A program made the translations under genes and the position numbers. Source: a virus. From it: a stretch of 64,000 nucleotides of DNA. This document shows, one piece after another, positions 6,132-55,662 of this stretch. The stretch is from IMG/VR virus record IMGVR_UViG_3300009873_000022, positions 607-64,606 of that record. The stretch is one strand, 5' to 3'. Position 1 is the first letter of the stretch; the number at the start of each line of letters is the position of its first letter. A model generated the notes under the pieces. It was not told the DNA's origin. It searched no databases and saw nothing but the letters and a program-made list of their open reading frames with translations.

Positions 6132-6247
6132 GATAGTCTCCTTTGAAGATCAGCCAAACAACCAGACAGATAACAAATGCGCACATACCGTGCCGACGAC
6201 GATACCAATGATGATCGGTACTGCACCACTCAACCACTCACGCCAGT

Positions 6248-7153
6248 TCATGCCGCCTTCCTTTCAATGAGTACCTGTACCTGCTTGATGGCAGCTTGGG
6301 CCATGCGTTCACTGAGTACATCAGCATTGATGACCACCAGAAGTTCTCCTCGCTCCTCGCATTCCTTGATGTATGGGCTAGTGACATGTGAGTTCGTGTA
6401 CCCCATATGCCCTTGACACACCCTTCCATCGTCATTGCACAGACGTGCCTTGAAGTTGTAGAAGCGATGCCAGCCCATGCAAGACTGCATAGCCAGTCTG
6501 TTCAGGTCAAGCGGCATGCTGCTGGACTTGGCAGTGAATGAGGTATGAACAGTGCTGGTAGTGGTGAAGACCTGATCGGCAGATGCCCCGACAGTTATCT
6601 CCACCGTGTAACCGGACTTCTGCAGCATGTCACACACTTTGTAGGCAGTAGCGGCACGCCAGATACTGGCCATTGCATCCACACTGCCAAGTCCACCGAT
6701 GTTGATGTAGACGTGTGCAGCCTTGCGCCTGACCTGATGCAGGTCACGACGAGTGTTGCTCCATGCCCTGTCAAGGTTGCCCTGATAGACAGCATGTATA
6801 TCAAGGTCACTGCCGTTGTCGGCCCGTACCCTTCTACGCTTGGTAGCTTGAGTGAGCGCTACCGGCAGCGTCTCGGGATTCAACGTGAGATGTGAGGCAG
6901 CGTACTTCACTGCACTCAACAGTTCCGGCCAGCCTTCCTTAACCTTCTGCTCGAACTCCTCGCCAGTGCGCACGGCAGGACCGTACCACTCACGACCACG
7001 AATTGAGGTCATTGGAATGGCAGTGCGCATCCGCGTTTGATTGATATCATTCTTCGGAGCATCCTTGAGAAGATCCTCGAATGAGGGATAGTGGATAACG
7101 TACTCCACTCGATTCGCGTAGGTACGCGACGGATACTTGCGTTCGATCTTCAT
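6248..7153 (-). CDS. hypothetical protein; possible partner of the adjacent AAA ATPase, with a position like CobT/VWA but no clear MIDAS motif
   Basis: 301-aa ORF translationally coupled to 7150..8391. Confidence 0.45.
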   Translation of the reverse strand: MKIERKYPSRTYANRVEYVIHYPSFEDLLKDAPKNDINQTRMRTAIPMTSIRGREWYGPAVRTGEEFEQKVKEGWPELLSAVKYAASHLTLNPETLPVALTQATKRRRVRADNGSDLDIHAVYQGNLDRAWSNTRRDLHQVRRKAAHVYINIGGLGSVDAMASIWRAATAYKVCDMLQKSGYTVEITVGASADQVFTTTSTVHTSFTAKSSSMPLDLNRLAMQSCMGWHRFYNFKARLCNDDGRVCQGHMGYTNSHVTSPYIKECEERGELLVVINADVLSERMAQAAIKQVQVLIERKAA

Positions 7154-8391
7154 GCTGTCACCTCATTCCTTGCGAGCATTGGCATAATGAGCGCCATTTC
7201 CTCAGCACTCCAGTCAGTGAAGTATGCTTGCTGCCAATCACCCTGCTTCCAGTCTGCCTGTTCAGTCATGTCGGCCAGATCCTTGATGGTGCGGGTTGAC
7301 ATGACGCGTCGCAGCGACTTCACGCGGATAGCCTCGCGCACTTTCCAAGCCCATTCAAGTAGCTTAGGATTGCCGATGGACTCCTCCACTTCCTTGCTGT
7401 AGTCCATGGTGATCATGCCAACACGGAACCGGTCGAGCGTGGCTGCGTCCAACTGATTGCGCCCGACATACATGGCATCAGCGCCATGACCATACGTGTT
7501 GGCTGCACCAATGGCCACGAAGTCCGGGTGACGCTTGACCAGTGGATTCTTGTACCGTTGCGGCAGGTAGAAACTGTCGTTGGCCAGTGCCTTGTTCAGG
7601 AAGGTGAGCAGGTTGGCATCTGCCGCATCCATCTCGTCGAACAGGAACACACCTCCATTCTCATACATCTTGATGAATGGCGATTCAACGTACTCGAACT
7701 GCCCAGACTTGCCAACTGGCAGGAGCCATCCAGTGAAAGCCGACTCACTGAGACCAGCAGAGCACGACTGATCGGCGAAGTCAAGCTTGAGGGCCTCGGC
7801 CAGTTTCGCTGCGAGGTACGTCTTGCCGCAGCCTGCGGGACCGACGAGCATGATGTTCTTGCGCGCAGCGCCAAGCTGTACCATGCGAGGGAATTCCTTG
7901 GGAAGGACTCCCTTGACCACTCTCGTCTTGCCCTTCTCTTTGATGACGAATGGCACTGCCTTTTCGGCCGCCTCACGCAGAGCAGTCTTGGCATCTTGCT
8001 TCAGGGTATCCTTGACCTTGTCAAGCGCCTCGAGTAGCCCGCTCATGTTCTTGTTGAACACGACCATGCCGTGCTCGTCGAGCTTGCTGCGACTGGACTC
8101 GATGACCTGCCCTACGATATCGTAGAGTTTCTCTTCCTGCGAGCCGACCACATTCTGAACACCGGTCTTGTGCAGGCAGATGGCGTCGTAGCCGCGCTGC
8201 GCCAGTTCAACATTCGCTTCGCAGATTTCCTTGAGGAACTTGCGTCGCAGCTCTTCAGACTTGAGCGTGGTCAAGCGATGCCTGACGCCCATGTAGTCCG
8301 CAAGCACATAGACCTGCGAATTGTGGAGATCCCCGTAGTTGAGGTCCTTGATGCTGGCCGGAAGGCCGCGTCCTTTCTTTGCAAAGCCCAT
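7150..8391 (-). CDS. MoxR/CobS-like AAA+ ATPase
   Basis: Walker A is LVGPAGCGKTYLAAKL and Walker B is VFLFDEMDAAD. The conserved AGGAGACTATC-ATG start context is present. Confidence 0.8.
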   Translation of the reverse strand: MGFAKKGRGLPASIKDLNYGDLHNSQVYVLADYMGVRHRLTTLKSEELRRKFLKEICEANVELAQRGYDAICLHKTGVQNVVGSQEEKLYDIVGQVIESSRSKLDEHGMVVFNKNMSGLLEALDKVKDTLKQDAKTALREAAEKAVPFVIKEKGKTRVVKGVLPKEFPRMVQLGAARKNIMLVGPAGCGKTYLAAKLAEALKLDFADQSCSAGLSESAFTGWLLPVGKSGQFEYVESPFIKMYENGGVFLFDEMDAADANLLTFLNKALANDSFYLPQRYKNPLVKRHPDFVAIGAANTYGHGADAMYVGRNQLDAATLDRFRVGMITMDYSKEVEESIGNPKLLEWAWKVREAIRVKSLRRVMSTRTIKDLADMTEQADWKQGDWQQAYFTDWSAEEMALIMPMLARNEVTA

Positions 8392-43712: not shown

Positions 43713-44174
43713 ATGATTATCACGCTGACACGCGACGCGAATCAACCATCAACAGACTGTACGCTCGGGGTCATGCTGGTTAATGAACGAAAGTTCTTCA
43801 CGATGGAACGACCATGGATACCAGAGTCTACCGGTGTCGGCATTGCCGGTCAGCCTTACCTGTCGTGCGTATCTACCGGAACTTACCGTCTAGAGCGCAG
43901 AGAAACTGAGGCGCGTGGAAAGCACTGGATGCTGTATGCCCCGACTCTCGGAGTCTACCGTTATCCACAAGATGTACCGGCAGGAGTTCACGGGCGCAGC
44001 CTCATCTTGATCCACGCTGCCAACTATGCCGAAGAACTGCATGGCTGCATTGCTCCTGGAAAGACTCGCTTCAAAAGCGAAGGCAGGTGGATGGTAACAG
44101 AATCTCGCGCCGCCATGAATGAGCTGCGCACTCTTCTTGGAAATCAGTTGGACTTAATCTTGGAGATAAAGTGA
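43713..44174 (+). CDS. YkuD-like L,D-transpeptidase-fold protein (putative cell-wall-active lysis enzyme)
   Basis: The motif H-x12-LHGCIAPG fits the L,D-transpeptidase H...HGC signature. The start MIITLTRD follows the upstream stop. Confidence 0.45.
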   Translation: MIITLTRDANQPSTDCTLGVMLVNERKFFTMERPWIPESTGVGIAGQPYLSCVSTGTYRLERRETEARGKHWMLYAPTLGVYRYPQDVPAGVHGRSLILIHAANYAEELHGCIAPGKTRFKSEGRWMVTESRAAMNELRTLLGNQLDLILEIK

Positions 44175-44629
44175 TGTTGAAACTAATGGAAGCCTTATCA
44201 AAAGTCGTTCCATTCATTGCCGGGCTTCTTCCCGATCCAGACGCTACTCATGAGGAGCTTCACGTGTGGAGACTTAGAATTGTATTCTGTCAGATCTTTG
44301 CCTTCATAGTCATGCTTAGTCTTTCTGGTATAGCCTATGTGGCCTTCACGACATTTGTGTCTGCCGATGAATTAGACTTGAAGATACAAAAGGCTGTCAA
44401 GCCAATCGAGATGAAGGTAGATTCATTGGATGTATTGGTCAGGCAGCAACTCGCTGTCACTCTTTCTACACAAATCCGAGACGCACGCAGACGGTGGTGT
44501 GCCGCACCGATAGACTCAATGGATAGAGAGCGCACTCAACAGGACATTGACAGGCTTCAGGATGAATACTACAGGGTCAAGGGCGAAAGATATTCTGTGC
44601 TGCCTTGTGCAGAACTCAATGGGAGGTAA
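44171..44629 (+). CDS. membrane protein (1 TM), possibly holin- or antiholin-related
   Basis: The TM segment is IVFCQIFAFIVMLSLSGIAYVAFTTFV. Confidence 0.4.
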   Translation: MMLKLMEALSKVVPFIAGLLPDPDATHEELHVWRLRIVFCQIFAFIVMLSLSGIAYVAFTTFVSADELDLKIQKAVKPIEMKVDSLDVLVRQQLAVTLSTQIRDARRRWCAAPIDSMDRERTQQDIDRLQDEYYRVKGERYSVLPCAELNGR

Positions 44630-44631
44630 TC

Positions 44632-44832
44632 ATGTGGTCTAGCATCTGGGCATTTTGGGTTGGACACGGAACGAAGGTTCTGGGTTTTCTTTCTGGTACC
44701 ATCGCGGCCGTAGCTGGTGTCGGCGGGTTGATCCCTGATCGTCATCTCAAATACTACATGGCTGTCATTGCAGTCCTGACGTTCTGGCGCGGTTTCTTCA
44801 ATAGTGCGCAGAACAAGGATGGTGGAGTATGA
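44632..44832 (+). CDS. putative holin (2 TM)
   Basis: ATG follows GGGAGG. Two hydrophobic helices are present. The protein is 66 aa. Confidence 0.5.
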   Translation: MWSSIWAFWVGHGTKVLGFLSGTIAAVAGVGGLIPDRHLKYYMAVIAVLTFWRGFFNSAQNKDGGV

Positions 44833-45308
44833 CTGACCTATCAAAGATCCTGATTGGATGTGTGGCCTTGATACTACTATTGGCAGGGTCATATGGAAAA
44901 GGAAGAAGTGACGGCGCTGCCATTGAGCGGAACAAGTTCAATGAGGTATCAATCGCGCAGAAGGTGCGCATCGAAGAACTGGAGAAGCGACAGGCAAGAA
45001 TCTCAGAGGAGAAGGACAATGAGTGGAGTGGAAAAGTGCGCGAGCTCAATGTGCGCATTGATGCTCTCAGCAATCTTGATATCGAGCCTATCAGGCTGTG
45101 TGTCCCGCGTCGTAGCATCGGACCCTCCGAAGTTCCCGCCACTGCCAGAAGCGGTGACGGAGGAGGTTCCAACGAAGGACATGGTTTGTTGGCTGGGGGA
45201 GATATTAGGCAGGACCTCTTGGTGTACGCAAAACAATGCGAATCAATGAGACAGAGGTTGGCCATTGCCCAGAAGTGGGCTTACGAGGTGAGTAGAGAAC
45301 AGAAGTGA
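44829..45308 (+). CDS. i-spanin (Rz-like): N-terminal TM plus a coiled-coil periplasmic domain
   Basis: The N-terminal TM segment is ILIGCVALILLLAG, followed by heptad repeats. Confidence 0.6.
   Translation: MTDLSKILIGCVALILLLAGSYGKGRSDGAAIERNKFNEVSIAQKVRIEELEKRQARISEEKDNEWSGKVRELNVRIDALSNLDIEPIRLCVPRRSIGPSEVPATARSGDGGGSNEGHGLLAGGDIRQDLLVYAKQCESMRQRLAIAQKWAYEVSREQK
45019..45249 (+). CDS. o-spanin (Rz1-like lipoprotein) embedded in the +1 frame of the i-spanin gene
   Basis: The RBS is GAGGAGAAGG. The lipobox is LSGC, followed by proline-rich PPKFPPLPEA. Confidence 0.55.
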   Translation: MSGVEKCASSMCALMLSAILISSLSGCVSRVVASDPPKFPPLPEAVTEEVPTKDMVCWLGEILGRTSWCTQNNANQ

Positions 45309-45344
45309 GAAGGAGGGCCGCGAGTTACCACGGCCCTCACTTCA
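45309..45344. terminator. bidirectional hairpin between convergent lysis and leftward-arm transcription units
   Basis: The hairpin is GAGGGCCGcgagttaccaCGGCCCTC, with an 8-bp stem. Confidence 0.45.
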
Positions 45345-45345
45345 T

Positions 45346-45651
45346 TCAAGCCAGATGCACTTGACTAAGTTCCAAGCCATTCATGTCTGCGACGATTTGT
45401 CGATATCGAAGTACTTCGGCATCCATCGCACTTACCATAGCCTCCCAGTACTCGACCTCCGTCATGACTCCCTTCTTGATGAGAAGCTGTACCAGTCCTG
45501 AGTGCTGAACCATTGCAGAGTTCACTCCTACTCGAAGATGCTTTGGCTCTTGATCCTTGCTTCTAGGCATGGAGGCCACTCCAGATTGCATGGCGTGACA
45601 CAGTTCGTTGTACCGTTGCATCAGCTGCGATAGCTTCACTACGTCTTCCAT
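45346..45651 (-). CDS. hypothetical protein
   Basis: The start MEDVV overlaps the SPFH stop as ATGA. The track ORF extends to 45723. Confidence 0.4.
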   Translation of the reverse strand: MEDVVKLSQLMQRYNELCHAMQSGVASMPRSKDQEPKHLRVGVNSAMVQHSGLVQLLIKKGVMTEVEYWEAMVSAMDAEVLRYRQIVADMNGLELSQVHLA

Positions 45652-46610
45652 CACTTTACTCCTGTGCTGAAAAATGGGATGGGAAGGCTGGCGTTGTACT
45701 GCTGTGGCAGTTGACCGTTCCACCGCTCAGCCTTGGTCTGCTCAACCTGAATGCGCAGCACTTCGAGCACATCCTTGTTCTGCTGAAGCGCGGCGTTCTG
45801 GATCTTCATGGCATCTGCCTTTGCAGTGGCATTCTTCAAGGTGGCATATGCCTCGCCGTCAGCAGTGGCCCTTACTGCAGACGCCTCTGCTTCTGCAATG
45901 GCAACCTTCTGCTTCTGTTCAGCTTCGACGGTCTTCAGCTTGTTCTCAGCACCGAGGCGAAGCTGCTCTTGTGTCACCTTGTCATTGATGGCGTCCATGT
46001 ACGACTTGCTGAATGCAAAGTTGCGCATATCGATGTTGACTACCTGTGCGCCATACAGGGCCAGCTTCTGCCCTAGCGCAGCATAGATATCTGACGATAC
46101 CGCTGCTCGTTTCGCAATGAGATCAGGTGCAGTGTACTTCGCAGTCACGGCCTTGAAGATTTCCTGTGCGGCTGTTTGCACGTAGCTGGAAAGATCACCG
46201 TCGTGTGAGTACTTCTCATAGACCTCCGCGACCTTGTCTGGGCTGATGGAGTAACGAACTGTCAGACTGACTGTCACTGGCTGCGTGTCAGAGGTTGAGC
46301 CGTTTGCATTCTCAATATCAGCTTGCTCAGCACGAACATTGAACAGCGCAATCTTCTGCCACGGAGGAAGGATAGCCAGCCCTTCCTGTTCAATGCCAAC
46401 GATCTTTCCGAATTGAGTCACTACACCACGACTTCCCGTTGGAACAGAATAAAATGGCCACAGAATACTGATCGCGATGAGTATCGCTATGGTAATCAGT
46501 ACGTCCCTGATGATGGCCGTAAAGTTCACCTCTGTGACTACCCTTGCTGGCCCTCTTCCGAATGCGTCTTCGATTGTCTTTGTCTTGGTGTATCTGTCTT
46601 TGATGCTCAT
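45651..46610 (-). CDS. SPFH/band-7 (prohibitin/HflKC-like) membrane protein
   Basis: An N-terminal TM segment is followed by an SPFH core and a C-terminal A/E-rich coiled coil. Confidence 0.75.
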   Translation of the reverse strand: MSIKDRYTKTKTIEDAFGRGPARVVTEVNFTAIIRDVLITIAILIAISILWPFYSVPTGSRGVVTQFGKIVGIEQEGLAILPPWQKIALFNVRAEQADIENANGSTSDTQPVTVSLTVRYSISPDKVAEVYEKYSHDGDLSSYVQTAAQEIFKAVTAKYTAPDLIAKRAAVSSDIYAALGQKLALYGAQVVNIDMRNFAFSKSYMDAINDKVTQEQLRLGAENKLKTVEAEQKQKVAIAEAEASAVRATADGEAYATLKNATAKADAMKIQNAALQQNKDVLEVLRIQVEQTKAERWNGQLPQQYNASLPIPFFSTGVK

Positions 46611-46617
46611 GCTTCCC

Positions 46618-47259
46618 TCAGAATAGTTTGAACGTTATGAACCCGTTTTTCCAGAATGATGCCGATCCATCTTCTTGTACAGGCGTCTCCGGTACCTCGA
46701 AATCGAAATGATACTCTTTATCTAGTAACCTCCTTGCCTTGGTCAAGCCTCTGTATGCAGTGAGCATGGCCAGCCTCTTGTTATGTAGATCTCGTTTGGC
46801 AACATCATACATGGACAGCAGAGGATGATCAGCATTCTTTTTCTTAGCTGCCTTTTCCAACTTCTTCAGATGTTTTCTGGCTGCCGCATTCGTGTCTAGA
46901 TCGCCCTCAACCCTCTCGATATTCTGCTCTACAATGAGGATCACATGGTTGAGAAAGTCTGCATCCTCGTTCCCCAGAACTTGCCTCAACGCTTCGGTCA
47001 CTATCTGGCGAATGATCAAGTGCGCGTACTCTTCTCTAGATAGGCTTTTCTTTGTTTCTCCTTCTTTGTCATACCGATCCCTCTTTTCTGGGTCACTCAG
47101 TATTTCATAGGCGCGATTGATCTCTGCCATCTTTTCATTCGCGTCACTGCTCTTGTTTCTATCCGGATGATAGTGAGATGACTTTCTTCGGAAGGCTTTT
47201 CGTATCTCATCCTGTGTGGCATTGGGTCTGACGCCCAAGATTTCATACAGACTAGCCAT
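46618..47259 (-). CDS. DnaJ (J-domain) co-chaperone-like protein
   Basis: The J domain is [31 protein letters not shown], with the HPD motif. Confidence 0.75.
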
Positions 47260-47443
47260 AGATTTCTCTCATGCCCATGTACCAGATATAGACCAGAGAC
47301 GGAATGACCCACAGAACTAGCCATGCTACCGCAGACCAGAAAATCACTTTTCCAGGAACAGAATCCGGATTAGACATCCCTTGATAGTACCCAAGCATGA
47401 TCATGCCGCCCACTATCCCTATCATTAGCATGCCCGCTATCAT
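47252..47443 (-). CDS. small membrane protein (2 TM)
   Basis: 63-aa hydrophobic ORF. Confidence 0.4.
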
Positions 47444-47856
47444 GGACCCTCCTTCACCACGTGTGAGGCGAGAATGACACTGATCACATCGTGAGGGCTG
47501 ACCCCGGCCACGGTCGCTATCTCCTGCATCTTCTTGGTCAGTTGATCATTCAACCTGATTGGAACAGCAATAGAACTGATTTCAACATCAGACTTGTCTT
47601 CCGCTTCAATCCGCCTCTCAATCTCCCTGTTGAGGCGTCGTGTCTCTTCGCGCTTCTGCTCCTCTTCTTCGGTAGCCAGAGTAGCTTTGATTGCCTCTGC
47701 CAAAGTAGTGATGGCGACAAAGAGTTCTTCGCGTGGAAGCCTCTTCGTGACATTGGCCAGCCAGTCTCTCAATTCAATCATGTCCAAGGGCGTCCCAGGA
47801 CTCCATTGAAACGTGGTGCTCATATCTTGTTCCTCTCTTCGGCTCTTGTATTCCAC
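47440..47856 (-). CDS. hypothetical protein with a possible RHH-like C-terminus
   Basis: 138-aa ORF. Confidence 0.35.
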   Translation of the reverse strand: MEYKSRREEQDMSTTFQWSPGTPLDMIELRDWLANVTKRLPREELFVAITTLAEAIKATLATEEEEQKREETRRLNREIERRIEAEDKSDVEISSIAVPIRLNDQLTKKMQEIATVAGVSPHDVISVILASHVVKEGP

Positions 47857-48182
47857 ATCTTGACGGCTAGCTCTTTCGTGTCATGAAAGCCACAGTGCGC
47901 TCCGCATCCTTTTCCGTACTGCGCATCACAGATGATTGTGAATGCTTTACGGTGTAGTCTATCATTGCCATATAGTTCGTCGCTTGAGATAAGCACGAGT
48001 GTATCGTCTTTGCCACAGAACGGACAGGGCGGATAGGAATGTAGAGTCACTACCCTTTCAATCTCACCTCTTACCCTTTCTATTTCCTTGACCAACTTTG
48101 ACGGTGGACATACCAGCGCGATATCAGTCAGTTCGCGGCGAAGGCGGCTAAGGTGTGGCTCCGCTGATTTCAGATTAATCAT
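47820..48182 (-). CDS. Lar-family restriction-alleviation-like Zn-ribbon protein
   Basis: CPFCG and CGAHCG are present. The C-terminal KMWNTR resembles the Lar-family WNxR. Confidence 0.5.
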   Translation of the reverse strand: MINLKSAEPHLSRLRRELTDIALVCPPSKLVKEIERVRGEIERVVTLHSYPPCPFCGKDDTLVLISSDELYGNDRLHRKAFTIICDAQYGKGCGAHCGFHDTKELAVKMWNTRAEERNKI

Positions 48183-48508
48183 TTGTCTCTCCTGAGGTAG
48201 ACTCGCGCACCGACTGAAATAGAATTGATTCCCTTGTCAATTCCAGTAGAGAGTGATGACATGTGGGAGGCCTCCAATGAAAGATGCACCTTGCCGAACT
48301 TGGGTACATCTACTGGAGTTTCCCACCCTAGGGTCACTCGACCATATGGATTTGCGGACCTGTCTGAAATCCGTGAGAACTTCGTAGTCTCGATCACGCC
48401 ATGCTTGGTAGCATTGACCGAAGTGACTGTTTCAATTCGTGGCAATGATACATCGAGGATTGAAAGGTTCGTTTCCAGGTACAGGCAGCACAGCAGAGCT
48501 TCCATCAT
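48179..48508 (-). CDS. hypothetical protein
   Basis: 109-aa ORF. Confidence 0.35.
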   Translation of the reverse strand: MMEALLCCLYLETNLSILDVSLPRIETVTSVNATKHGVIETTKFSRISDRSANPYGRVTLGWETPVDVPKFGKVHLSLEASHMSSLSTGIDKGINSISVGARVYLRRDK

Positions 48509-48735
48509 ACTCTCCTAACCGACGGTAGTGGCACAGACTGATTCCACTTCTCTTCTTTCATCAACCTCTTTACGATGTTGGTCGCAGACTCCGGACTTTC
48601 TGCGACGTAGGTTGCGTAGTCAGTCGGGTTCCCATACCCCTCATTCCGTGAAAAATCTTTTTCGTGTGTAGTGATAACCCATCCATTAGATGCTTGGCGA
48701 ATTTCGATTACTCTGATTACAGGCTTATCCGACAT
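48505..48735 (-). CDS. hypothetical protein
   Basis: 76-aa ORF. Confidence 0.35.
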   Translation of the reverse strand: MSDKPVIRVIEIRQASNGWVITTHEKDFSRNEGYGNPTDYATYVAESPESATNIVKRLMKEEKWNQSVPLPSVRRV

Positions 48736-49045
48736 TTGAATTCTCCAGTTTTGAACTCAGTTCATTAATCACTTTAGCCGCATCTTCAAGTTTTCCCATT
48801 GACTCTACTAGTGCTGCTCTAGTCGCTACCAGTATGACCTCCAGTAGTCCTACGGCAAGAATGGTCACTGCATTGATTCCGAACAACAGAGCCACTAGAA
48901 AATCACCGTGGCCTACGGAAACTCCTGCACCGAATATGAACAGCAGAGCTATCAGAACCGATGGAGTATGTGGTCTTGCCTTCATACGAATTTTCCCCCT
49001 TCTGCAAACTTTCCATACGGGAGATTGAATTCCTGATGGCTCCAC
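48725..49045 (-). CDS. membrane protein
   Basis: 106-aa ORF with several hydrophobic helices. Confidence 0.4.
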   Translation of the reverse strand: MEPSGIQSPVWKVCRRGKIRMKARPHTPSVLIALLFIFGAGVSVGHGDFLVALLFGINAVTILAVGLLEVILVATRAALVESMGKLEDAAKVINELSSKLENSNVG

Positions 49046-49284
49046 ACCTCACCCATGATTCGGTCACTGTTGAGCATGACGAAGAATGCACCTAGCCATT
49101 CCTCTCGTTTCTTCAGTGCCTTCCTTCGAAGTGCGATTGGCCGATTAGAGTCAAGACACTTGGCATGATGGACGTTAGAGTACCAGACTGACAGAATCAA
49201 TCCGGTCAAACTGGCCAGTGCCATGTTCTCATCGTATGCTATTCCCTTTCGTGTCTTGCGAATTTCGGTTTGCAGCTCCTTCAC
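48982..49284 (-). CDS. hypothetical protein
   Basis: 100-aa ORF that overlaps the next ORF, so the start is uncertain. Confidence 0.3.
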   Translation of the reverse strand: MKELQTEIRKTRKGIAYDENMALASLTGLILSVWYSNVHHAKCLDSNRPIALRRKALKKREEWLGAFFVMLNSDRIMGEVWSHQEFNLPYGKFAEGGKFV

Positions 49285-49449: not shown

Positions 49450-49760
49450 GCCTCGCCGCGCCTAGCACATAGCGCGGCAGGCTGGCAAGCAATTTAACAA
49501 TAATTCAACCCGGCCCCGGCTGGCCCTGCCTGCCCCGGCCCACATGCCCCGGCCCAAGCCCCGCGAGCTCTGGCGCGAGCCCCATGGGCCCCGGCTGGCC
49601 TATTACCTGCCCCGGCTGGCCCCGGTTTGCCAGCCCTGCCCCGGCTGGCCTGCCCCGGCTGGCCCTGCCCGGTTTGCGCAACCTGCCAGCCTGTAGCGGC
49701 CCGTGGTGGGCCGTGGGGCCTAATAACAGCGGGGGCACCAAGCCCTGTGAGCCCCAAGCA
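49450..49760. repeat. GC-rich intergenic repeat block with at least 5 copies of TGCCCCGGCTGGCC and G-tracts on the minus strand, preceded by the hairpin GCCGCGC...GCGCGGC
   Basis: The block is visible in the sequence, and its local GC is far above the roughly 50% of the rest of the window. The collagen-like ORFs called here are artefacts. Confidence 0.7.
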
Positions 49761-50630: not shown

Positions 50631-51665
50631 TCAACCTCCCTTCACAGACATTCTGCGCTGAAGCCATTCAATGCAGGCGATCTTCCAGTCTTCCGCCTTG
50701 CAGTGTGCAGCCAGATGGTTGATTGCCTCTTGGGTTTGTCCGGCCTTGTGCATGTCCCACGCCAGTTGAATGGGGAAGAAGACATCCAGGAAGTACGAAT
50801 CATAGTGCCCACACTGTTCCCTGTGCGCGCCTTCCATCACTTCTAGCAGTTGGAACAACCACTCTTCCCATCTTGTGCCATTGATCAATGGGTACGGCTT
50901 GATGTTCTGTGTGGCGTACCTATCCACGCTCGCCGGGCTGGACCGCACCTTCAACCATGCGTCCTGTTGAGTGTAGACATGAAAGCTGTCGCTCACTTGG
51001 ATGTATGACCCTACCTCTACGCGCAAGGCGCGAGCCACGAATTCTTGAATGGTGCTGAACTGTACTGCGTTCGCTCCGTATGCTCCCCAGATGGCGTCGT
51101 TGCTGCGGCAGCTTACCGTGATGTTCAACCTTCCATCGCGCAACTTGAAGAAGATCAGATCATTGCACGGGATATCCTTCGAATTAGCCCCGAGGTCTGC
51201 AATTGGATCCCAGATGGCCACCACTGCGCGACGAGTATCTGGATCGTCACCAAGAAGTCTGATGACGCGACGGAGCTGATCAATTCCATGGAATGCCCTG
51301 ATTCGAAAGCCGTAAGCTCCGTGGAATGTCTCTCCATTGTCACTGTACTCAGACATCTTCTTGTTATAGCGAGTCAGTGTCGCTACGTCATTGCGCCCAT
51401 CGATGATCCACAGAGCCTCCATGAAATGGAAAAACGGATTCGCGTCTCTTTCTGGCGAAAAGAGCACACGCTCATCCGGTCGCAGGTACTCTGTAATCCA
51501 CAGACCCTTGTACTCCGCTGTCTCCATTCCACGGGGAGATATCACCCTCCAATTCTCCGAGTCTTGAATGGCCTCGACCGCACTGATCCTGAGATTGTTC
51601 AGTGCCTGATTCACATTTCTTACCACGACTGATCTAATCACTTCTTTCTCCTTTTGATTTCCCAC
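50631..51665 (-). CDS. thymidylate synthase-family enzyme (ThyA or dUMP hydroxymethylase; Cys nucleophile retained with His replaced by Asn)
   Basis: The protein aligns by eye to ThyA. LWIIDGRND aligns to LWFLQGDTN. AYGFRIRAF aligns to VYGKQWRAW. DPDTRRAVVAIWDP aligns to DPDSRRIIVSAWN. IPCNDLIFF aligns to APCHAFFQF. RSNDAIWGAYGAN aligns to RSCDVFLGLPFN, and the uracil-specific Asn is kept. Confidence 0.8.
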   Translation of the reverse strand: MGNQKEKEVIRSVVVRNVNQALNNLRISAVEAIQDSENWRVISPRGMETAEYKGLWITEYLRPDERVLFSPERDANPFFHFMEALWIIDGRNDVATLTRYNKKMSEYSDNGETFHGAYGFRIRAFHGIDQLRRVIRLLGDDPDTRRAVVAIWDPIADLGANSKDIPCNDLIFFKLRDGRLNITVSCRSNDAIWGAYGANAVQFSTIQEFVARALRVEVGSYIQVSDSFHVYTQQDAWLKVRSSPASVDRYATQNIKPYPLINGTRWEEWLFQLLEVMEGAHREQCGHYDSYFLDVFFPIQLAWDMHKAGQTQEAINHLAAHCKAEDWKIACIEWLQRRMSVKGG

Positions 51666-52648
51666 GGTCTAAGTACAACTTCTGACAGCGTCCTTATCTT
51701 GGTAGCGCCATCAACGGCCGTTCTATCACTGCCGGTAGGCATTCTCAATTCTTTCTTGCCCTTCTTGTCGGGTAGCAGCCCAACACGGTATGACTTGGCA
51801 TCACACACGTTGCACGGCTTCAACGAAGCTCTGTCACCTTGCATCAAGAATCTTCTTGCCGCCATGAACTCATTACCGTTCCACACGGCATCGAGGCCGT
51901 CCTTCACGATGTTTCCACACTGATATACGCCGCGCCAGTCATTACAGCAGATGGCCACTTCTCCATCCCATCGAATGGATAACTCACGGAATGGCTTCGC
52001 GCATCTGGCCTTCAACGGTTCTTTCAGTCCGGGGGAGCCAGAGCCGCAATGATTGTTCAGTGTCGAGTGTGTCCCGGCCTGCGCTACACTGATATCCTGT
52101 ACGCGAATGAATACTCGCGCCTTGTGCCCGTATCTGTTGTGTGGTGACCAGTCCTTTTCTTGTGGATAGGCATGTACTTCGAACACGTTTGAATCGAACG
52201 ATGAGAATTGTTCTGTGTTCGAAAACAGAATCGGGTCAATCTTGTCCTTGATCTTCACATACTCATAGGCATCGAATGCAAATACATTCAAGCCTGCATC
52301 AAACAGCTCTCTCAATGACTCGAACACTCCGGGTGGACGCAATAGCCCACCACCATTGGATGTCATCATCAACTGTACATTCGGCAGATACCTGCGGAAT
52401 GCCTTGACGATCTTGATGTAGTTAGGGTTCATCGTCGGTTCGCCATGCATTGCGAACTCAATGCGAGGATTCCACCCTGCCTCTGCAATCTGACCAGCGA
52501 TACTCTTGGCAGTAGCCACGGTCATGAACTTGAAATTCTTCTCCTTCTGTGTGCGGATACCCTGTAGCCCACAGAAGTCGCAATAGAGGTTGCAGCCCTC
52601 ACTGAGTTCCACCTGTACGGCGAACGGAGCTTCTTGTCTGTACTTCAT
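51638..52648 (-). CDS. radical SAM enzyme with a SPASM-like C-terminal domain
   Basis: The CxxxCxxC motif is EGCNLYCDFCG. The C-terminus has CCNDWRGVYQCGN...CNVCD. Confidence 0.8.
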   Translation of the reverse strand: MKYRQEAPFAVQVELSEGCNLYCDFCGLQGIRTQKEKNFKFMTVATAKSIAGQIAEAGWNPRIEFAMHGEPTMNPNYIKIVKAFRRYLPNVQLMMTSNGGGLLRPPGVFESLRELFDAGLNVFAFDAYEYVKIKDKIDPILFSNTEQFSSFDSNVFEVHAYPQEKDWSPHNRYGHKARVFIRVQDISVAQAGTHSTLNNHCGSGSPGLKEPLKARCAKPFRELSIRWDGEVAICCNDWRGVYQCGNIVKDGLDAVWNGNEFMAARRFLMQGDRASLKPCNVCDAKSYRVGLLPDKKGKKELRMPTGSDRTAVDGATKIRTLSEVVLRPWEIKRRKK

Positions 52649-53673
52649 TTCAACATCTCCTCTATGTACATCTGACCGACCAGCTTGGGATCGTGCTCTC
52701 TCAGCAGTCTGTACCCATGATGTACGATCTCTCCAATCGAAGACCTGCGCAGTGGCAGTCCATTCAGTATGGCAGACACATTGAACGCCAGTTCACTTGG
52801 CCCATTGACTGGGATTACGTGCCTCCACTTTCGTAGCTCACCATTGTATCGGAACCAGTCGTAGTGCATGATGTTGACACATCCAGCATCCATGGCCTCC
52901 ATCTGCGCGTACTGTGTGCCACCTCCATCATCTGGAAACCATGTCATGTCCACGTTCACCGTAGCTGCCGCAGCCAATCTCACTGGAGCATCAAAAGTCA
53001 TGGGATACTGAAAGGTCTTACCACTCTGCTGAAAGACATCACCGTATTTCGCTTCGAGTTGCTTGGTGTACATGCGAAATTCAGCGCCCAGAAGCTTCAC
53101 CCTGTACTGTGGCTCGAGCATCCTGTTTGCCTCCAGCACGATCCTCGGGCGTTTGACACTGGCAATTCGCGCAATGGATATCGCTTCATTTCTCCTGCGA
53201 ATCTCAGGAAACGGACCAGCACGCATGTATGGATGTGGAATCCACACTGCGTCCTTGTAGAAGTGCCGTATCGTTGGACGGATACAGATGGGCCGCGTTG
53301 CCAGTTTGGTGACCTTTCCCAAATGATCGTAGATCGTGAATTCATTTGGGTCATGAATGACGGTGCGCATACCATCGGCCATCAAGCGCATGATCATATC
53401 TGGAGGAGTGAGGTACTTGGAATTCGCCGGTGATCCCATCACGGTAGGCATGTCTTTGACTATGGTCCTAGCCTCGCTGAATGTGATGTTCCTGTATTTC
53501 ACTCCTTCATACTGTGCAAAGTTTCGTAGCCTCTCTGGCGGTTCGCCACGAGGTTTGACACGAAGTATCACGGGTTCGTGTCCAGCGGCTTCGAACGCTT
53601 TGAACAAGTGCGCAGTGAACGTGGATGTTCCGCCTCCAAGGTACGGGCGAAAGAAGAATATTCCTACTTTCAT
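52645..53673 (-). CDS. GT-B fold glycosyltransferase, possibly DNA-modifying (the N-terminus recalls T4 alpha-glucosyltransferase)
   Basis: MKVGIFFFRPYLGGGTSTF...AAGHEPVILRV is compared with the T4 AGT N-terminus MRICIFMARGLEGCGVTKF...GHEVTLV as recalled from memory. Confidence 0.45.
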   Translation of the reverse strand: MKVGIFFFRPYLGGGTSTFTAHLFKAFEAAGHEPVILRVKPRGEPPERLRNFAQYEGVKYRNITFSEARTIVKDMPTVMGSPANSKYLTPPDMIMRLMADGMRTVIHDPNEFTIYDHLGKVTKLATRPICIRPTIRHFYKDAVWIPHPYMRAGPFPEIRRRNEAISIARIASVKRPRIVLEANRMLEPQYRVKLLGAEFRMYTKQLEAKYGDVFQQSGKTFQYPMTFDAPVRLAAAATVNVDMTWFPDDGGGTQYAQMEAMDAGCVNIMHYDWFRYNGELRKWRHVIPVNGPSELAFNVSAILNGLPLRRSSIGEIVHHGYRLLREHDPKLVGQMYIEEMLK

Positions 53674-53792
53674 CTATGGGCTCCCAGCGATATCGCCTTA
53701 CAATGAACACACTGGTAGACACCACCCTTGAGATGATTGAACTTGAACTCCCATTTGCAGTTAAGGAATAGACACCTGATTGAGTACCTCAT
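53670..53792 (-). CDS. possible 40-aa Zn-ribbon microprotein, translationally coupled (ATGA overlap)
   Basis: The sequence MRYSIRCLFLNCKWEFKFNHLKGGVYQCVHCKAISLGAHR has CxxxxC...CxxC. The longer track ORF 53670..53918 overlaps the upstream gene. Confidence 0.25.
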   Translation of the reverse strand: MRYSIRCLFLNCKWEFKFNHLKGGVYQCVHCKAISLGAHR

Positions 53793-54664
53793 ATGATCCC
53801 TTCCCCTTTCAACTTGCTCACGTTCAATTGCAACTCGAAATTGAAATGCGGCAACTCGTACGGAAAAGCCTTGCGCCAATTGATACGAACATCGGTGCGT
53901 TCTTTCATTCCTTCCCACGATGTAGCACCGATCACTTTCTTTCGAACAACGGTTACGTACTTGGGATGCGCATCACGCAGCATGTGTGCCGCCTTGGCCT
54001 GTGTCTCTTCGTTACGGTAGATACTGCACCCTCCCTTCATATTAGACCCGGTCTGGTTCCAGCAGTAGTCGTAGACACAGGCATTTGGAATTCCACGCTC
54101 AAGAAGCGACAATGTCACGTGAAAGTCCTCCATGACCCTGTACTCATCGAACCTTAGCCCGGTCTTGGCAAACTCTTTGATGTTGAACCCATGAACATTG
54201 TTGATGCGCGTACACCATCTGTAAGGGCTTAGATAGTGTGATGAATCTACACGGCTAGACAACCCTGTCTGCACGATTCCCATGCTGAGTGGCCTGACCA
54301 TCATGTAGAGCATGTGCCTCATGTCAGGTGCAGTGGCCTTCACTAGTTTGATGGCTCTTGGTCTTTCTCTACGGTAGAAGTAGAGGTCGTCATCGAACAT
54401 CAGAGCATACTTGGTAGGGCAATGATCAAGTATCCACTGTCTGGTCTTGCCAATCCCCTTCTTTGATATACCCAAGACCTTGAATAGTGAATTTGGGTGA
54501 TGCTGTCTGTATTCAGATACCTCATCAATTGGCACTACGACCCTGACCTTGCCAGCCTCTGAAAGTTCTACTGGCATGGCATAGAACGTTCGCACATCTG
54601 CGGCCCTACCCCTACTGGGAATGTAGATGGTAGTGTCTTCCATCAACTCTTCGTACGAACTCAT
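53789..54664 (-). CDS. putative GT-A fold glycosyltransferase (DxD-like MFDDDLYFY)
   Basis: The N-terminus IYIPSRGR is Rossmann-like and an acidic DDD motif is present. The protein is 291 aa. Confidence 0.4.
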   Translation of the reverse strand: MSSYEELMEDTTIYIPSRGRAADVRTFYAMPVELSEAGKVRVVVPIDEVSEYRQHHPNSLFKVLGISKKGIGKTRQWILDHCPTKYALMFDDDLYFYRRERPRAIKLVKATAPDMRHMLYMMVRPLSMGIVQTGLSSRVDSSHYLSPYRWCTRINNVHGFNIKEFAKTGLRFDEYRVMEDFHVTLSLLERGIPNACVYDYCWNQTGSNMKGGCSIYRNEETQAKAAHMLRDAHPKYVTVVRKKVIGATSWEGMKERTDVRINWRKAFPYELPHFNFELQLNVSKLKGEGII

Positions 54665-54672
54665 GAGTGCTC

Positions 54673-55662
54673 CTATAATGGTAACTCGTGCTGTAGTGTC
54701 CCCACTCCTGTCGGTGTGAAAAGACTGCGCGGCCTTCCCTCACCATTCTTGACGCGCATGTACTTGTCGAACTCGCAGAGTGAATGTTCAATCTCTCGCA
54801 TCTCGAATGGAAGTTCCGTTCCACGTGCATGTGCTTTGGAGTATACGAACATGTTGAACCAACTCCCCTGTATCAGAAGATCTCGCATGACAGCATTGTA
54901 ATCAATCTTCCTGTACTTCTTGGTCTTTGGACGTTCAGCGCTGCCAGTCAGCAATCGATGAATGCCGCGCTTCGCACCGGGTCCGGGGTTGGCCCATGAC
55001 TCACTGTCAATGTTCTTGGCAAGGACCCTAGTGTACCTTAGATCACACGCTATCTCATATGCAACGAATGGCCCAATGGTATAGATCTCGCTCAGTGCCT
55101 CGACTGCCTTTTCCATTGAGCGATGATTCGCTATCTGCGCCGCCAGTTCATCGCGCTTTTCAAAGAGTTCCTGTAGTGCCTCACATATGACAACGATCTT
55201 TGACTCCTTTCGCCCGCCAGATGTAACGATGTACGCGCCAGTGAATATCTGCTTTCCCTCTGCTTTTCGTTTCTCCAGAATCTTGATGGCACGATCTTTG
55301 ACCCACAGGTTCTTCGACCACTTTCCCTTGGTGAGTTCGCTACGTGGTAGCCCAAAGAACAGAGCATCGTAGGTCTCTGGCCAATTGAACAGTCGAAACA
55401 TGGCACAGTGGAAGATGATATCACCATCGGTCATTTCCTTACCGCGACCGAGAAGACGTACGAACCGGTCTACCCAAGCGAGTGTCACACGGTCAAGTTG
55501 CCTGAATACATTGGTGAACTTGTATTTGGACAGTATCTTGTCCTTAGTGTATGGTGGGGACCTCTTCTCTACGAATCTGCGTAGATAGATTGAATGACGC
55601 TCATTGATGAAATACCAGAATGTCTTCAATTGAGTTTTCCGGTACGCAATCTTATCGGCCAT
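54673..55662 (-). CDS. hypothetical protein in the DNA-modification-like cluster
   Basis: 329-aa ORF with no recognisable motif by eye. Confidence 0.45.
   Translation of the reverse strand: MADKIAYRKTQLKTFWYFINERHSIYLRRFVEKRSPPYTKDKILSKYKFTNVFRQLDRVTLAWVDRFVRLLGRGKEMTDGDIIFHCAMFRLFNWPETYDALFFGLPRSELTKGKWSKNLWVKDRAIKILEKRKAEGKQIFTGAYIVTSGGRKESKIVVICEALQELFEKRDELAAQIANHRSMEKAVEALSEIYTIGPFVAYEIACDLRYTRVLAKNIDSESWANPGPGAKRGIHRLLTGSAERPKTKKYRKIDYNAVMRDLLIQGSWFNMFVYSKAHARGTELPFEMREIEHSLCEFDKYMRVKNGEGRPRSLFTPTGVGTLQHELPL

Follow-up and report, generated by a model that had tools for sequence, protein, structure and literature searches.

A class-C J-domain protein, a prohibitin-type SPFH protein and a Lar-like zinc ribbon at the distal end of a leftward phage operon

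This analysis concerns a block of ten tightly packed genes on the minus strand of a viral DNA stretch of 64,000 nucleotides (nt) (IMG/VR record IMGVR_UViG_3300009873_000022, positions 607 to 64,606; hereafter the window), which makes up most of a 64.6-kb contig. Three products of the block are the main subjects here: an SPFH/Band-7 protein (SPFH319), a J-domain protein (J213) and a Lar-like zinc-ribbon protein (Lar120). An initial annotation had placed these three features on the minus strand, and Pfam matches recover all of them at or near the coordinates it gave, the Lar match being marginal. It had let the block extend from 45651 to 48182; the genes assigned to this interval are there, but the block is longer on both sides, with g101 (45346-45651) at one end and four further genes (48179-49284) at the other. 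The annotation also spoke of small membrane proteins in the plural, but only one, tm63, lies within its coordinates, the other open reading frame (ORF) being that of the soluble protein g127. All coordinates are collected in Table 1.

Table 1. Genes and sequence features of the accessory block (in order of transcription) and of its surroundings; positions are those of the window.
Feature	Position	Strand	Basis or remark
Block of ten genes, g100 to g86 to g76 to g108 to Lar120 to g127 to tm63 to J213 to SPFH319 to g101	49284 to 45346	minus	tightly packed
g100	48982-49284	minus	small coupled ORFan
g86, two hydrophobic helices	48725-48985	minus	small coupled ORFan
g76	48505-48735	minus	small coupled ORFan
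g108	48179-48505	minus	small coupled ORFan
Lar120, Lar-family zinc-ribbon protein, 120 amino acids	47820-48182	minus	PF14354, PHROG 599
g127, acidic helical soluble protein, 127 amino acids	47440-47823	minus	ORF; gene call on source contig
tm63, membrane microprotein with two hydrophobic helices, ORFan, 63 amino acids	47252-47443	minus	hydropathy; GGAGG ribosome-binding site
J213, class-C J-domain protein, 213 amino acids	46618-47259	minus	PF00226
SPFH319, SPFH/Band-7 protein of prohibitin type, 319 amino acids	45651-46610	minus	Pfam, PHROG and structure matches
g101, soluble ORFan, last gene of the leftward operon, 101 amino acids	45346-45651	minus	ORF; source-contig gene call; AGGAG ribosome-binding site
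GC-rich 8-base-pair hairpin, GAGGGCCG-N10-CGGCCCTC, candidate bidirectional terminator	45314-45339		read from sequence
Rz-like spanin, last gene of the lysis cassette	44829-45308	plus	
ORF nested in the spanin gene, other frame	44893-45249	plus	lipobox (LSGC), then proline-rich segment
Direct-repeat array, 76% G+C, six copies of the 14-nt unit GGCCCCGGCTGGCC	49505-49740		between the DUF3310 gene and g100
ThyA-like enzyme	50631-51665	minus	
Radical SAM/SPASM enzyme	51638-52648	minus	
TAGT glycosyltransferase	53789-54664	minus	
5-hydroxymethyldeoxyuridine (5-hmdU) DNA kinase	54673-55662	minus	E=3e-61
CobS/MoxR-like AAA ATPase	7150-8391	minus	PHROG 249, labelled 'porphyrin biosynthesis', E=3e-56

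Neighbouring genes of the block overlap by 1-11 nt or are spaced by 7 nt (the ATG of g101 and the stop codon of the SPFH319 gene share a single nucleotide), ribosome-binding sites of the GGAG/GAGG type precede nine of the ten, and an independent gene caller applied to the source contig predicted identical block genes. By a consensus scan, promoters and terminators are not overrepresented within the block. The hairpin occupies the 37-nt gap between g101 and the convergent spanin gene; it has no T-run and was not called by the consensus terminator scan, and Rfam and tRNA scans of the whole window gave no matches. That the block follows the lysis genes, as the initial annotation stated, is borne out, since it converges on a plus-strand lysis cassette that ends in the spanin gene. 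The block is the distal tail of the leftward early/middle arm, because minus-strand replication and hypermodification genes precede it. No integrase was found among the proteins scanned from this genome, which is annotated in part only.

SPFH319 matches PF01145 with 108.4 bits (cut-off 23.6; E=5.6e-31) over residues 55-237 and PHROG 200 with E=7e-44, and the solved chains closest to it are prohibitins (9urz, 8rrh; E ~1e-16 to 1e-14), followed by HflK. It resembles the prohibitin and HflK-HflC scaffolds (9urz, 8rrh, 7vhp) in possessing a Band-7 domain, in being anchored by one membrane segment at the N-terminus and in having a C-terminal part that is prohibitin-like to about residue 285. The anchor is a hydrophobic stretch at about residues 27-59 (Kyte-Doolittle peak 2.5) and is not that of a lipoprotein, because there is no lipobox cysteine. 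The C-terminal segment (about residues 215-300) is rich in Ala, Glu, Gln and Lys and aligns with prohibitin over residues 215-285, and it is this aligned segment alone that hints at assembly into a ring or cage. SPFH319 differs from HflK and HflC in that it is phage-encoded, in that it falls short of their equivalog cut-offs (46.7 and 45.5 bits against 159.4 for TIGR01933 and 134.4 for TIGR01932) and in that its gene is single, the block having one SPFH gene only and no pair of the hflK-hflC type. Pfam found no match to the partner protein NfeD in any block protein. A role in lysogeny control of the HflK/C type was considered and set aside, a temperate lifestyle being unsupported, as no integrase was seen among the scanned proteins of this partly annotated genome.

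In IMG/VR, a scan brought up 43 viral loci whose product shares 51-74% identity with SPFH319. At none of them is there a counterpart of another gene of the block or of its flanks, clustering of their ORFs revealed no shared neighbour, and the genes around SPFH are assorted early genes (Erf, RecE, primases, ligases, methyltransferases). The corresponding scan of bacteria, with one genome per species, gave 189 matches, of which 80 were kept for comparison. These 80 copies are 67-80% identical to SPFH319, come almost all from Gamma- and Betaproteobacteria (Steroidobacteraceae, Burkholderiales, Rhodocyclaceae, Nevskia and others) and adjoin housekeeping genes (efflux components, poly(A) polymerase, amidohydrolases) in no fixed arrangement; a conserved neighbour of SPFH, be it NfeD or another gene, is found neither across the 43 viral nor across the 80 bacterial loci. 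Over the conserved core, the ten sequences nearest to SPFH319 are all bacterial (80-82% identical; chromosomal prohibitin-type genes from metagenome-assembled genomes of Steroidobacteraceae and other Gammaproteobacteria, and Betaproteobacteria), viral and bacterial copies are intermixed, and for 19 of the 43 viral sequences the nearest neighbour is bacterial. The PHROG 200 proteins of Burkholderia phage CSP3, Escherichia phage Skarpretter and Faecalibacterium phage FP_Toutatis are likewise encoded by stand-alone accessory genes in early or replication regions, but they are only 27-32% identical to SPFH319, as against the 80-82% of the cellular genes. The SPFH319 gene is thus a host-derived cellular gene of the prohibitin type that is carried stand-alone by many unrelated phages. 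Its G+C content of 52% matches that of the phage, compared with 63% at typical donor loci, and the transfer is therefore not recent.

J213 has a canonical J domain at residues 1-68 (PF00226, 88.4 bits, cut-off 27.8; E=3.3e-25) that is up to 68% identical to the J domains of cellular DnaJ. The HPD motif, the loss of which the initial annotation had named as evidence against its proposal, is intact at residues 31-33 and invariant across the three family members. Pfam found neither the DnaJ zinc finger (PF00684) nor DnaJ_C (PF01556) in J213, which, lacking these two domains of DnaJ and CbpA, is a class-C J-protein. Recruitment of DnaK can soundly be inferred from the canonical J domain. A search of 5.8 billion proteins with J213 gave matches to the J domain only, and a full HMMER scan of 1.84 billion representative proteins found one real relative of the C-terminal 148 residues, namely P0122 from contig L205, which is 43% identical to J213 over the full length. 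A further full-length homologue (30% identity, E=1e-22) is encoded on contig L089, a more distant relative of the phage (ThyA-like enzyme 44% identical). There, the J gene follows ThyA, YfbR and a 256-amino-acid ORF that lay outside the profile scan, it lies at the equivalent operon end as the last gene before convergent late genes, and SPFH and Lar-like genes are both absent from the locus. J213 is thus the lineage-conserved element of the block. A single-sequence AlphaFold (AF2) model of J213 is all-helical and of low confidence (predicted local distance difference test, pLDDT, 52.5), too poor for a fold search. Both J213 (window 46618-46660) and P0122 end, after an acidic linker, in a conserved aromatic/hydrophobic tail, which in P0122 reads INPFKATMFKF and which might be a docking or membrane-binding peptide.

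The initial annotation regarded SPFH and DnaJ-domain genes as uncommon in phages, and the counts agree: among 50,697 isolated-phage records, tblastn matched SPFH in 190 and J213 in 66, and a second J architecture occurs in another 92. Both gene types are well precedented in phages, the one by annotations of a 'prohibitin family protein' that already exist among phage records, the other by Rki (PMC3486835). Rki (ORF057w) of Escherichia phage RB43 was the first phage-encoded J-domain protein to be characterised; its binding to DnaK and the stabilisation of sigma-32 have been demonstrated, and FtsH is the protease involved (PMC3486835). Rki and J213 are both of class C, lacking the G/F region, the zinc finger and the DnaJ C-terminal domain, both consist of an N-terminal J domain of about 70 residues with HPD and a C-terminal part of about 150 residues that has almost no relatives, and both genes sit amid early accessory ORFans. 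However, their J domains alone can be aligned (BLASTP, 38% over 64 amino acids, residues 6-69), their C-terminal domains are unrelated, and the J domain of J213 is nearer to the cellular DnaJ consensus (88 bits in Pfam, compared with 25 bits for Rki). Homology between J213 and Rki was rejected, the alignment being confined to the J domain, and so was the idea that 058w, the downstream neighbour of Rki in RB43 that is fused to Rki in some relatives, is an SPFH protein.

Lar120 matches PF14354 with 29.2 bits, at a cut-off of 28.6, over profile positions 4-58 of 58, and PHROG 599 with E=6.6e-7, while its 33.1 bits against NCBIfam TIGR03655 stay under the cut-off of 39.6. The motifs on which the initial annotation based its Lar assignment are all present, CPFCG at residues 53-57, CGAHCG at 93-98 and WNTR at 110-113, but WNTR is not the C-terminus, because seven residues follow it. 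Cysteines at positions 53, 56, 85, 93 and 97 provide the four needed for a zinc ribbon. Alleviation of type I restriction, together with enhanced modification, is known in this family for Lar of the Rac prophage only (PMC2993543), and Lar120 resembles that protein in its CPFCG motif, in a second cluster of cysteines that includes CGA and in the W-N-x-R motif of the C-terminal part. In contrast to the Lar of E. coli K-12, Lar120 scores marginally, carries an N-terminal extension of about 50 amino acids before the ribbon and a 7-residue insertion within the second cysteine pair, and has no close homologue that we could find: a word-indexed search of 5.8 billion proteins returned none other than Lar120 itself, the phage search gave two weak matches only (E=0.03-0.08), and no solved structural relative was found. 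An anti-restriction role is a reasonable guess from the match to the Lar family.

The remaining products of the block are small. For g127, an internal ATG overlapping the stop codon of the Lar120 gene was preferred as the start over a reading as a 138-amino-acid ORF. The protein gave nothing above cut-off in Pfam, and its single-sequence AF2 model (pLDDT 55.3) is of low confidence and too poor for a fold search. A homologue of 144 amino acids lies at the equivalent position of L205 (7570-8004; BLASTP E=8e-9), and the two are alike at their ends only. Their conserved C-terminus (IAVPIRLNDQLTKKMQEIATVAGVSPHDVISVILA) follows a strand-helix-helix pattern, which on a reading of the sequence, without profile support, is reminiscent of ribbon-helix-helix DNA-binding proteins. 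No family matches were found for g101, tm63, g108, g76, g86 or g100 in Pfam, PHROG and NCBIfam, nor in PADLOC for all of them but g100. The latter four, which lie upstream of the interval named in the initial annotation, are lineage-conserved ORFans.

The lineage in question consists of the window and the sister phage L205. Here, the gene order is identical, and the identities between the two are 68% for the ThyA-like enzyme, 88% for the YfbR-like protein, 68% for the DUF3310 protein, 73% for g100, 38% for g86, 54% for g76 and 29% for g108, as well as 62% for the spanin, 85% for a 151-amino-acid lysis-cassette protein (g151, 44174-44629) and 73% for DUF5675. The accessory genes of L205 run from g100-like, g86-like, g76-like and g108-like genes through the g127 homologue and the J gene to a 67-amino-acid two-helix protein and a 276-amino-acid Band-7 protein, and they meet a convergent spanin gene. 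No homologue of g101 and no Lar-like gene is present in L205; Lar120 is a private gain or loss because of this absence. The Band-7 protein of L205 belongs to another subfamily and is 26% identical to SPFH319, compared with 43% and 62% for the products of the adjoining genes. The slot right after the J gene is thus filled by different SPFH cassettes in the two sister phages. With SPFH genes as rare in phages as they are (190 of the 50,697 records), pure coincidence is unlikely, and the shared slot points to selection for an SPFH function in the lineage or in the host. The 67-amino-acid membrane protein directly precedes an SPFH gene of the L205 type in three otherwise different contigs (L205 8642-9679, L286 354-1351, L287 5780-6762), and the two form a conserved two-gene cassette that is reminiscent of operons consisting of a small partner and SPFH, without NfeD. 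Between this small membrane protein and tm63 there is no detectable relationship, and they lie on opposite sides of the J gene. When IMG/VR and the JGI metagenomes were queried with the 151-amino-acid lysis-cassette protein, no further members of the lineage were found, and in the search of 5.8 billion proteins it likewise comprised the window and L205 only.

The phage that harbours the block, of about 64.6 kb, is novel and probably virulent. A megablast of the block against the 50,697 phage records found no close DNA relatives, and the terminase is at most 36% identical to that of any isolate, over part of its length only. Between about 13.5 and 45.3 kb, the plus strand carries terminase, structural, tail and lysis genes. 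On the minus strand ahead of the block, genes for DNA polymerase A, an exonuclease, a PD-(D/E)XK nuclease and an SNF2 helicase are followed by a thymidine-hypermodification cluster (window 50631-55662) and then by a YfbR-like HD phosphohydrolase and a DUF3310 protein. The phage probably hypermodifies its DNA, in itself a strategy against restriction. Next comes the direct-repeat array, which the gene caller had turned into a Gly/Pro/Arg-rich ORF of 77 amino acids; for the core motif of its unit 0.23 chance matches are expected, compared with the six copies present. The array and about 220 nt without a convincing gene set the block apart from the upstream arm, and L205 has an array of similar composition, made of a different unit, at the equivalent position (6195-6330). 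The array may mark the upstream edge of the accessory block, and it is possible that it represents iterons or a regulatory region. Beyond the other end of the block, the ORF nested in the spanin gene has the look of an Rz1-type outer-membrane spanin, which would support the identification of the lysis cassette. Elsewhere in the window, the CobS/MoxR-like ATPase gene sits in the early arm amid genes for a primase, a ligase and a DNA-binding protein.

How, then, is the block to be understood? With a little better than even confidence, we take it for a set of ordinary accessory genes that were acquired separately, have differing histories and gathered at a variable operon end, rather than for an island that was inherited as a whole. 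The transcription unit would run from DNA polymerase A through the helicase and the thymidine-hypermodification cluster to the YfbR-like and DUF3310 genes, the repeat array and the accessory genes, and would end at the hairpin facing the lysis cassette. J213 most likely docks onto host DnaK with its HPD loop and stimulates the DnaK ATPase, and the client, or the place of action, would be determined by the helical C-terminal domain that is private to J213. Its closest functional analogue would be Rki of RB43, which diverts DnaK and stabilises sigma-32 (PMC3486835). By homology, SPFH319 probably forms or joins a ring or cage on the inner membrane, similar to those that enclose proteases of the FtsH type and organise membrane microdomains, such that its expression would change membrane proteostasis during infection. 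Lar120, divergent and specific to this phage, may have a modulating effect on type I restriction-modification similar to that of Rac Lar, to judge from its marginal profile match. The remaining genes are ORFans, and the sole recurrent pairing in the lineage is that of a J-protein followed by SPFH at the operon end.

Several points weigh against this understanding of the block. The assignment of Lar120 to its family is borderline, 0.6 bits above the Pfam cut-off and below that of NCBIfam. The charges flanking the anchor of SPFH319 do not tell one membrane orientation from the other, and the cage may accordingly face either compartment. Conservation is judged from two lineage members and one distant relative, both the phage and its host are uncultured, and the functions proposed are all inferred. 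Finally, the sister phages hold two different SPFH cassettes in one and the same slot right after the J gene, such that the SPFH and J genes are perhaps less independent than we assume.

This last point is the starting point of an alternative that we consider unlikely but worth weighing, according to which J213 and the SPFH protein would be a two-part module on the DnaK/FtsH membrane-proteolysis axis, the J-protein diverting DnaK and the extra SPFH cage sequestering FtsH, such that a heat-shock factor or labile phage proteins would be stabilised. In E. coli, DnaK and DnaJ deliver sigma-32 to the membrane protease FtsH, and SPFH cages of the HflK/C type gate FtsH. The solved structures nearest to SPFH319 include that of HflK, which modulates FtsH, and in the case of Rki the stabilisation of sigma-32 proceeds through DnaK, with FtsH as the protease (PMC3486835). 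In both the window and L205, the operon ends with the J gene followed by SPFH, yet the two SPFH proteins, of different subfamilies, share 26% identity and the flanks 43-88%, which looks like a non-orthologous replacement in a fixed slot. The operon end may, however, be a mere insertion hot spot, and an SPFH domain that was periplasmic could not directly touch a cytoplasmic J-protein. An unrelated viral contig (L033, 6001-7500) encodes an SPFH protein 64% identical to SPFH319 and, directly after it, a 205-amino-acid protein of the PHROG 9210 type, in which the J domain is C-terminal. However, L033 is the only one of the 43 viral SPFH loci with a J domain, no SPFH gene lies within 6 kb at any of the 80 viral loci that were found through their J domain, and the J-proteins of this second architecture in isolated phages (92 records, of Gordonia, Microbacterium, Synechococcus, Erythrobacter and haloviruses) have no SPFH neighbour, nor does Rki of RB43. 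Among the 80 bacterial SPFH loci a J domain is likewise found at one (L202), which we do not count as linkage since the gene is a cellular full-length dnaJ and its occurrence is at about chance frequency. A general linkage of J and SPFH genes was rejected on these grounds: it is real only within the two-member lineage, plus the one unrelated case of L033. A bolder version of the module, which we regard as somewhat less probable still, would be a two-gene device that rewires the DnaK-FtsH circuit of the host in infection, consisting of a private J adaptor for DnaK that is kept and an interchangeable SPFH cage whose subfamily may change, one such subfamily deriving from the host's own gene of the prohibitin type.

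The initial annotation had favoured yet another view, that of a single island for host takeover and anti-defence, with the Lar-like protein acting against type I restriction, SPFH and membrane microproteins acting against membrane-based abortive-infection (Abi) systems and the J-protein chaperoning anti-defence clients. Clusters of small ORFans at operon ends are a common place for anti-defence genes, and the block does have small ORFans at its operon end, the profile match of Lar120 and, in the same operon, the thymidine-hypermodification cluster with its anti-restriction potential. Nevertheless, of the nine block proteins scanned against the defence and defence-associated models of PADLOC-DB (g100 was outside the scan), eight gave no match and g127 a single insignificant one (E=0.009, 0 stretches). 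The Lar-like gene, being absent from L205, was not inherited with the rest; SPFH travels alone at the 43 viral loci; and J and SPFH genes do not generally go together, the limited linkage that remains being the J gene followed by SPFH, of a different subfamily, at the same operon end of L205. SPFH319 moreover is a close copy of a gene that has a housekeeping context in cells, not a phage-specific inhibitor, nothing was found that ties it to Abi, and the literature we found gives no link between phage SPFH proteins and anti-defence, describing their role as unclear. The island as proposed is not supported, and we think a dedicated anti-defence function of the whole improbable. Least probable of all is that SPFH319 and the membrane microprotein serve the membrane cycle of the phage itself, for example in lysis timing or superinfection exclusion, and not host proteostasis. 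The SPFH gene does lie next to the lysis cassette and converge on it, an SPFH gene is paired with a small two-helix membrane protein in L205, L286 and L287, and one paper speculates about a part in adsorption or DNA entry (PMC13239085). However, the gene stands on the strand opposite the lysis genes, in the early/middle arm, its neighbours in other viral contigs are replication and recombination genes and not lysis genes, and tm63 is neither related to the small membrane protein of L205 nor placed like it.

Phage J-proteins, phage prohibitins and Lar-family proteins, the last of which are common phage annotations, are already known, and the block is not a new kind of system. What is new is a nearly orphan family of class-C phage J-proteins, to be set beside Rki as the single characterised example, the clear evidence that, in one SPFH subfamily, phages have captured a cellular gene time and again, and an SPFH gene whose slot beside a J gene is conserved while its subfamily is swapped. 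As neither the phage nor its host is in culture, the locus is of limited direct use for experiments. In the papers found, the role of phage SPFH/prohibitin proteins is called unclear or is guessed at, and in this context the locus offers two modest handles on it. The window copy is nearly the same (80-82%) as a cellular gene, and dozens of unrelated phages have acquired members of its subfamily, which speaks for a generic function on the host side from which many of them profit. The presence of SPFH proteins of different subfamilies in the post-J slot of both lineage members suggests a functional pairing with DnaK-dependent processes.

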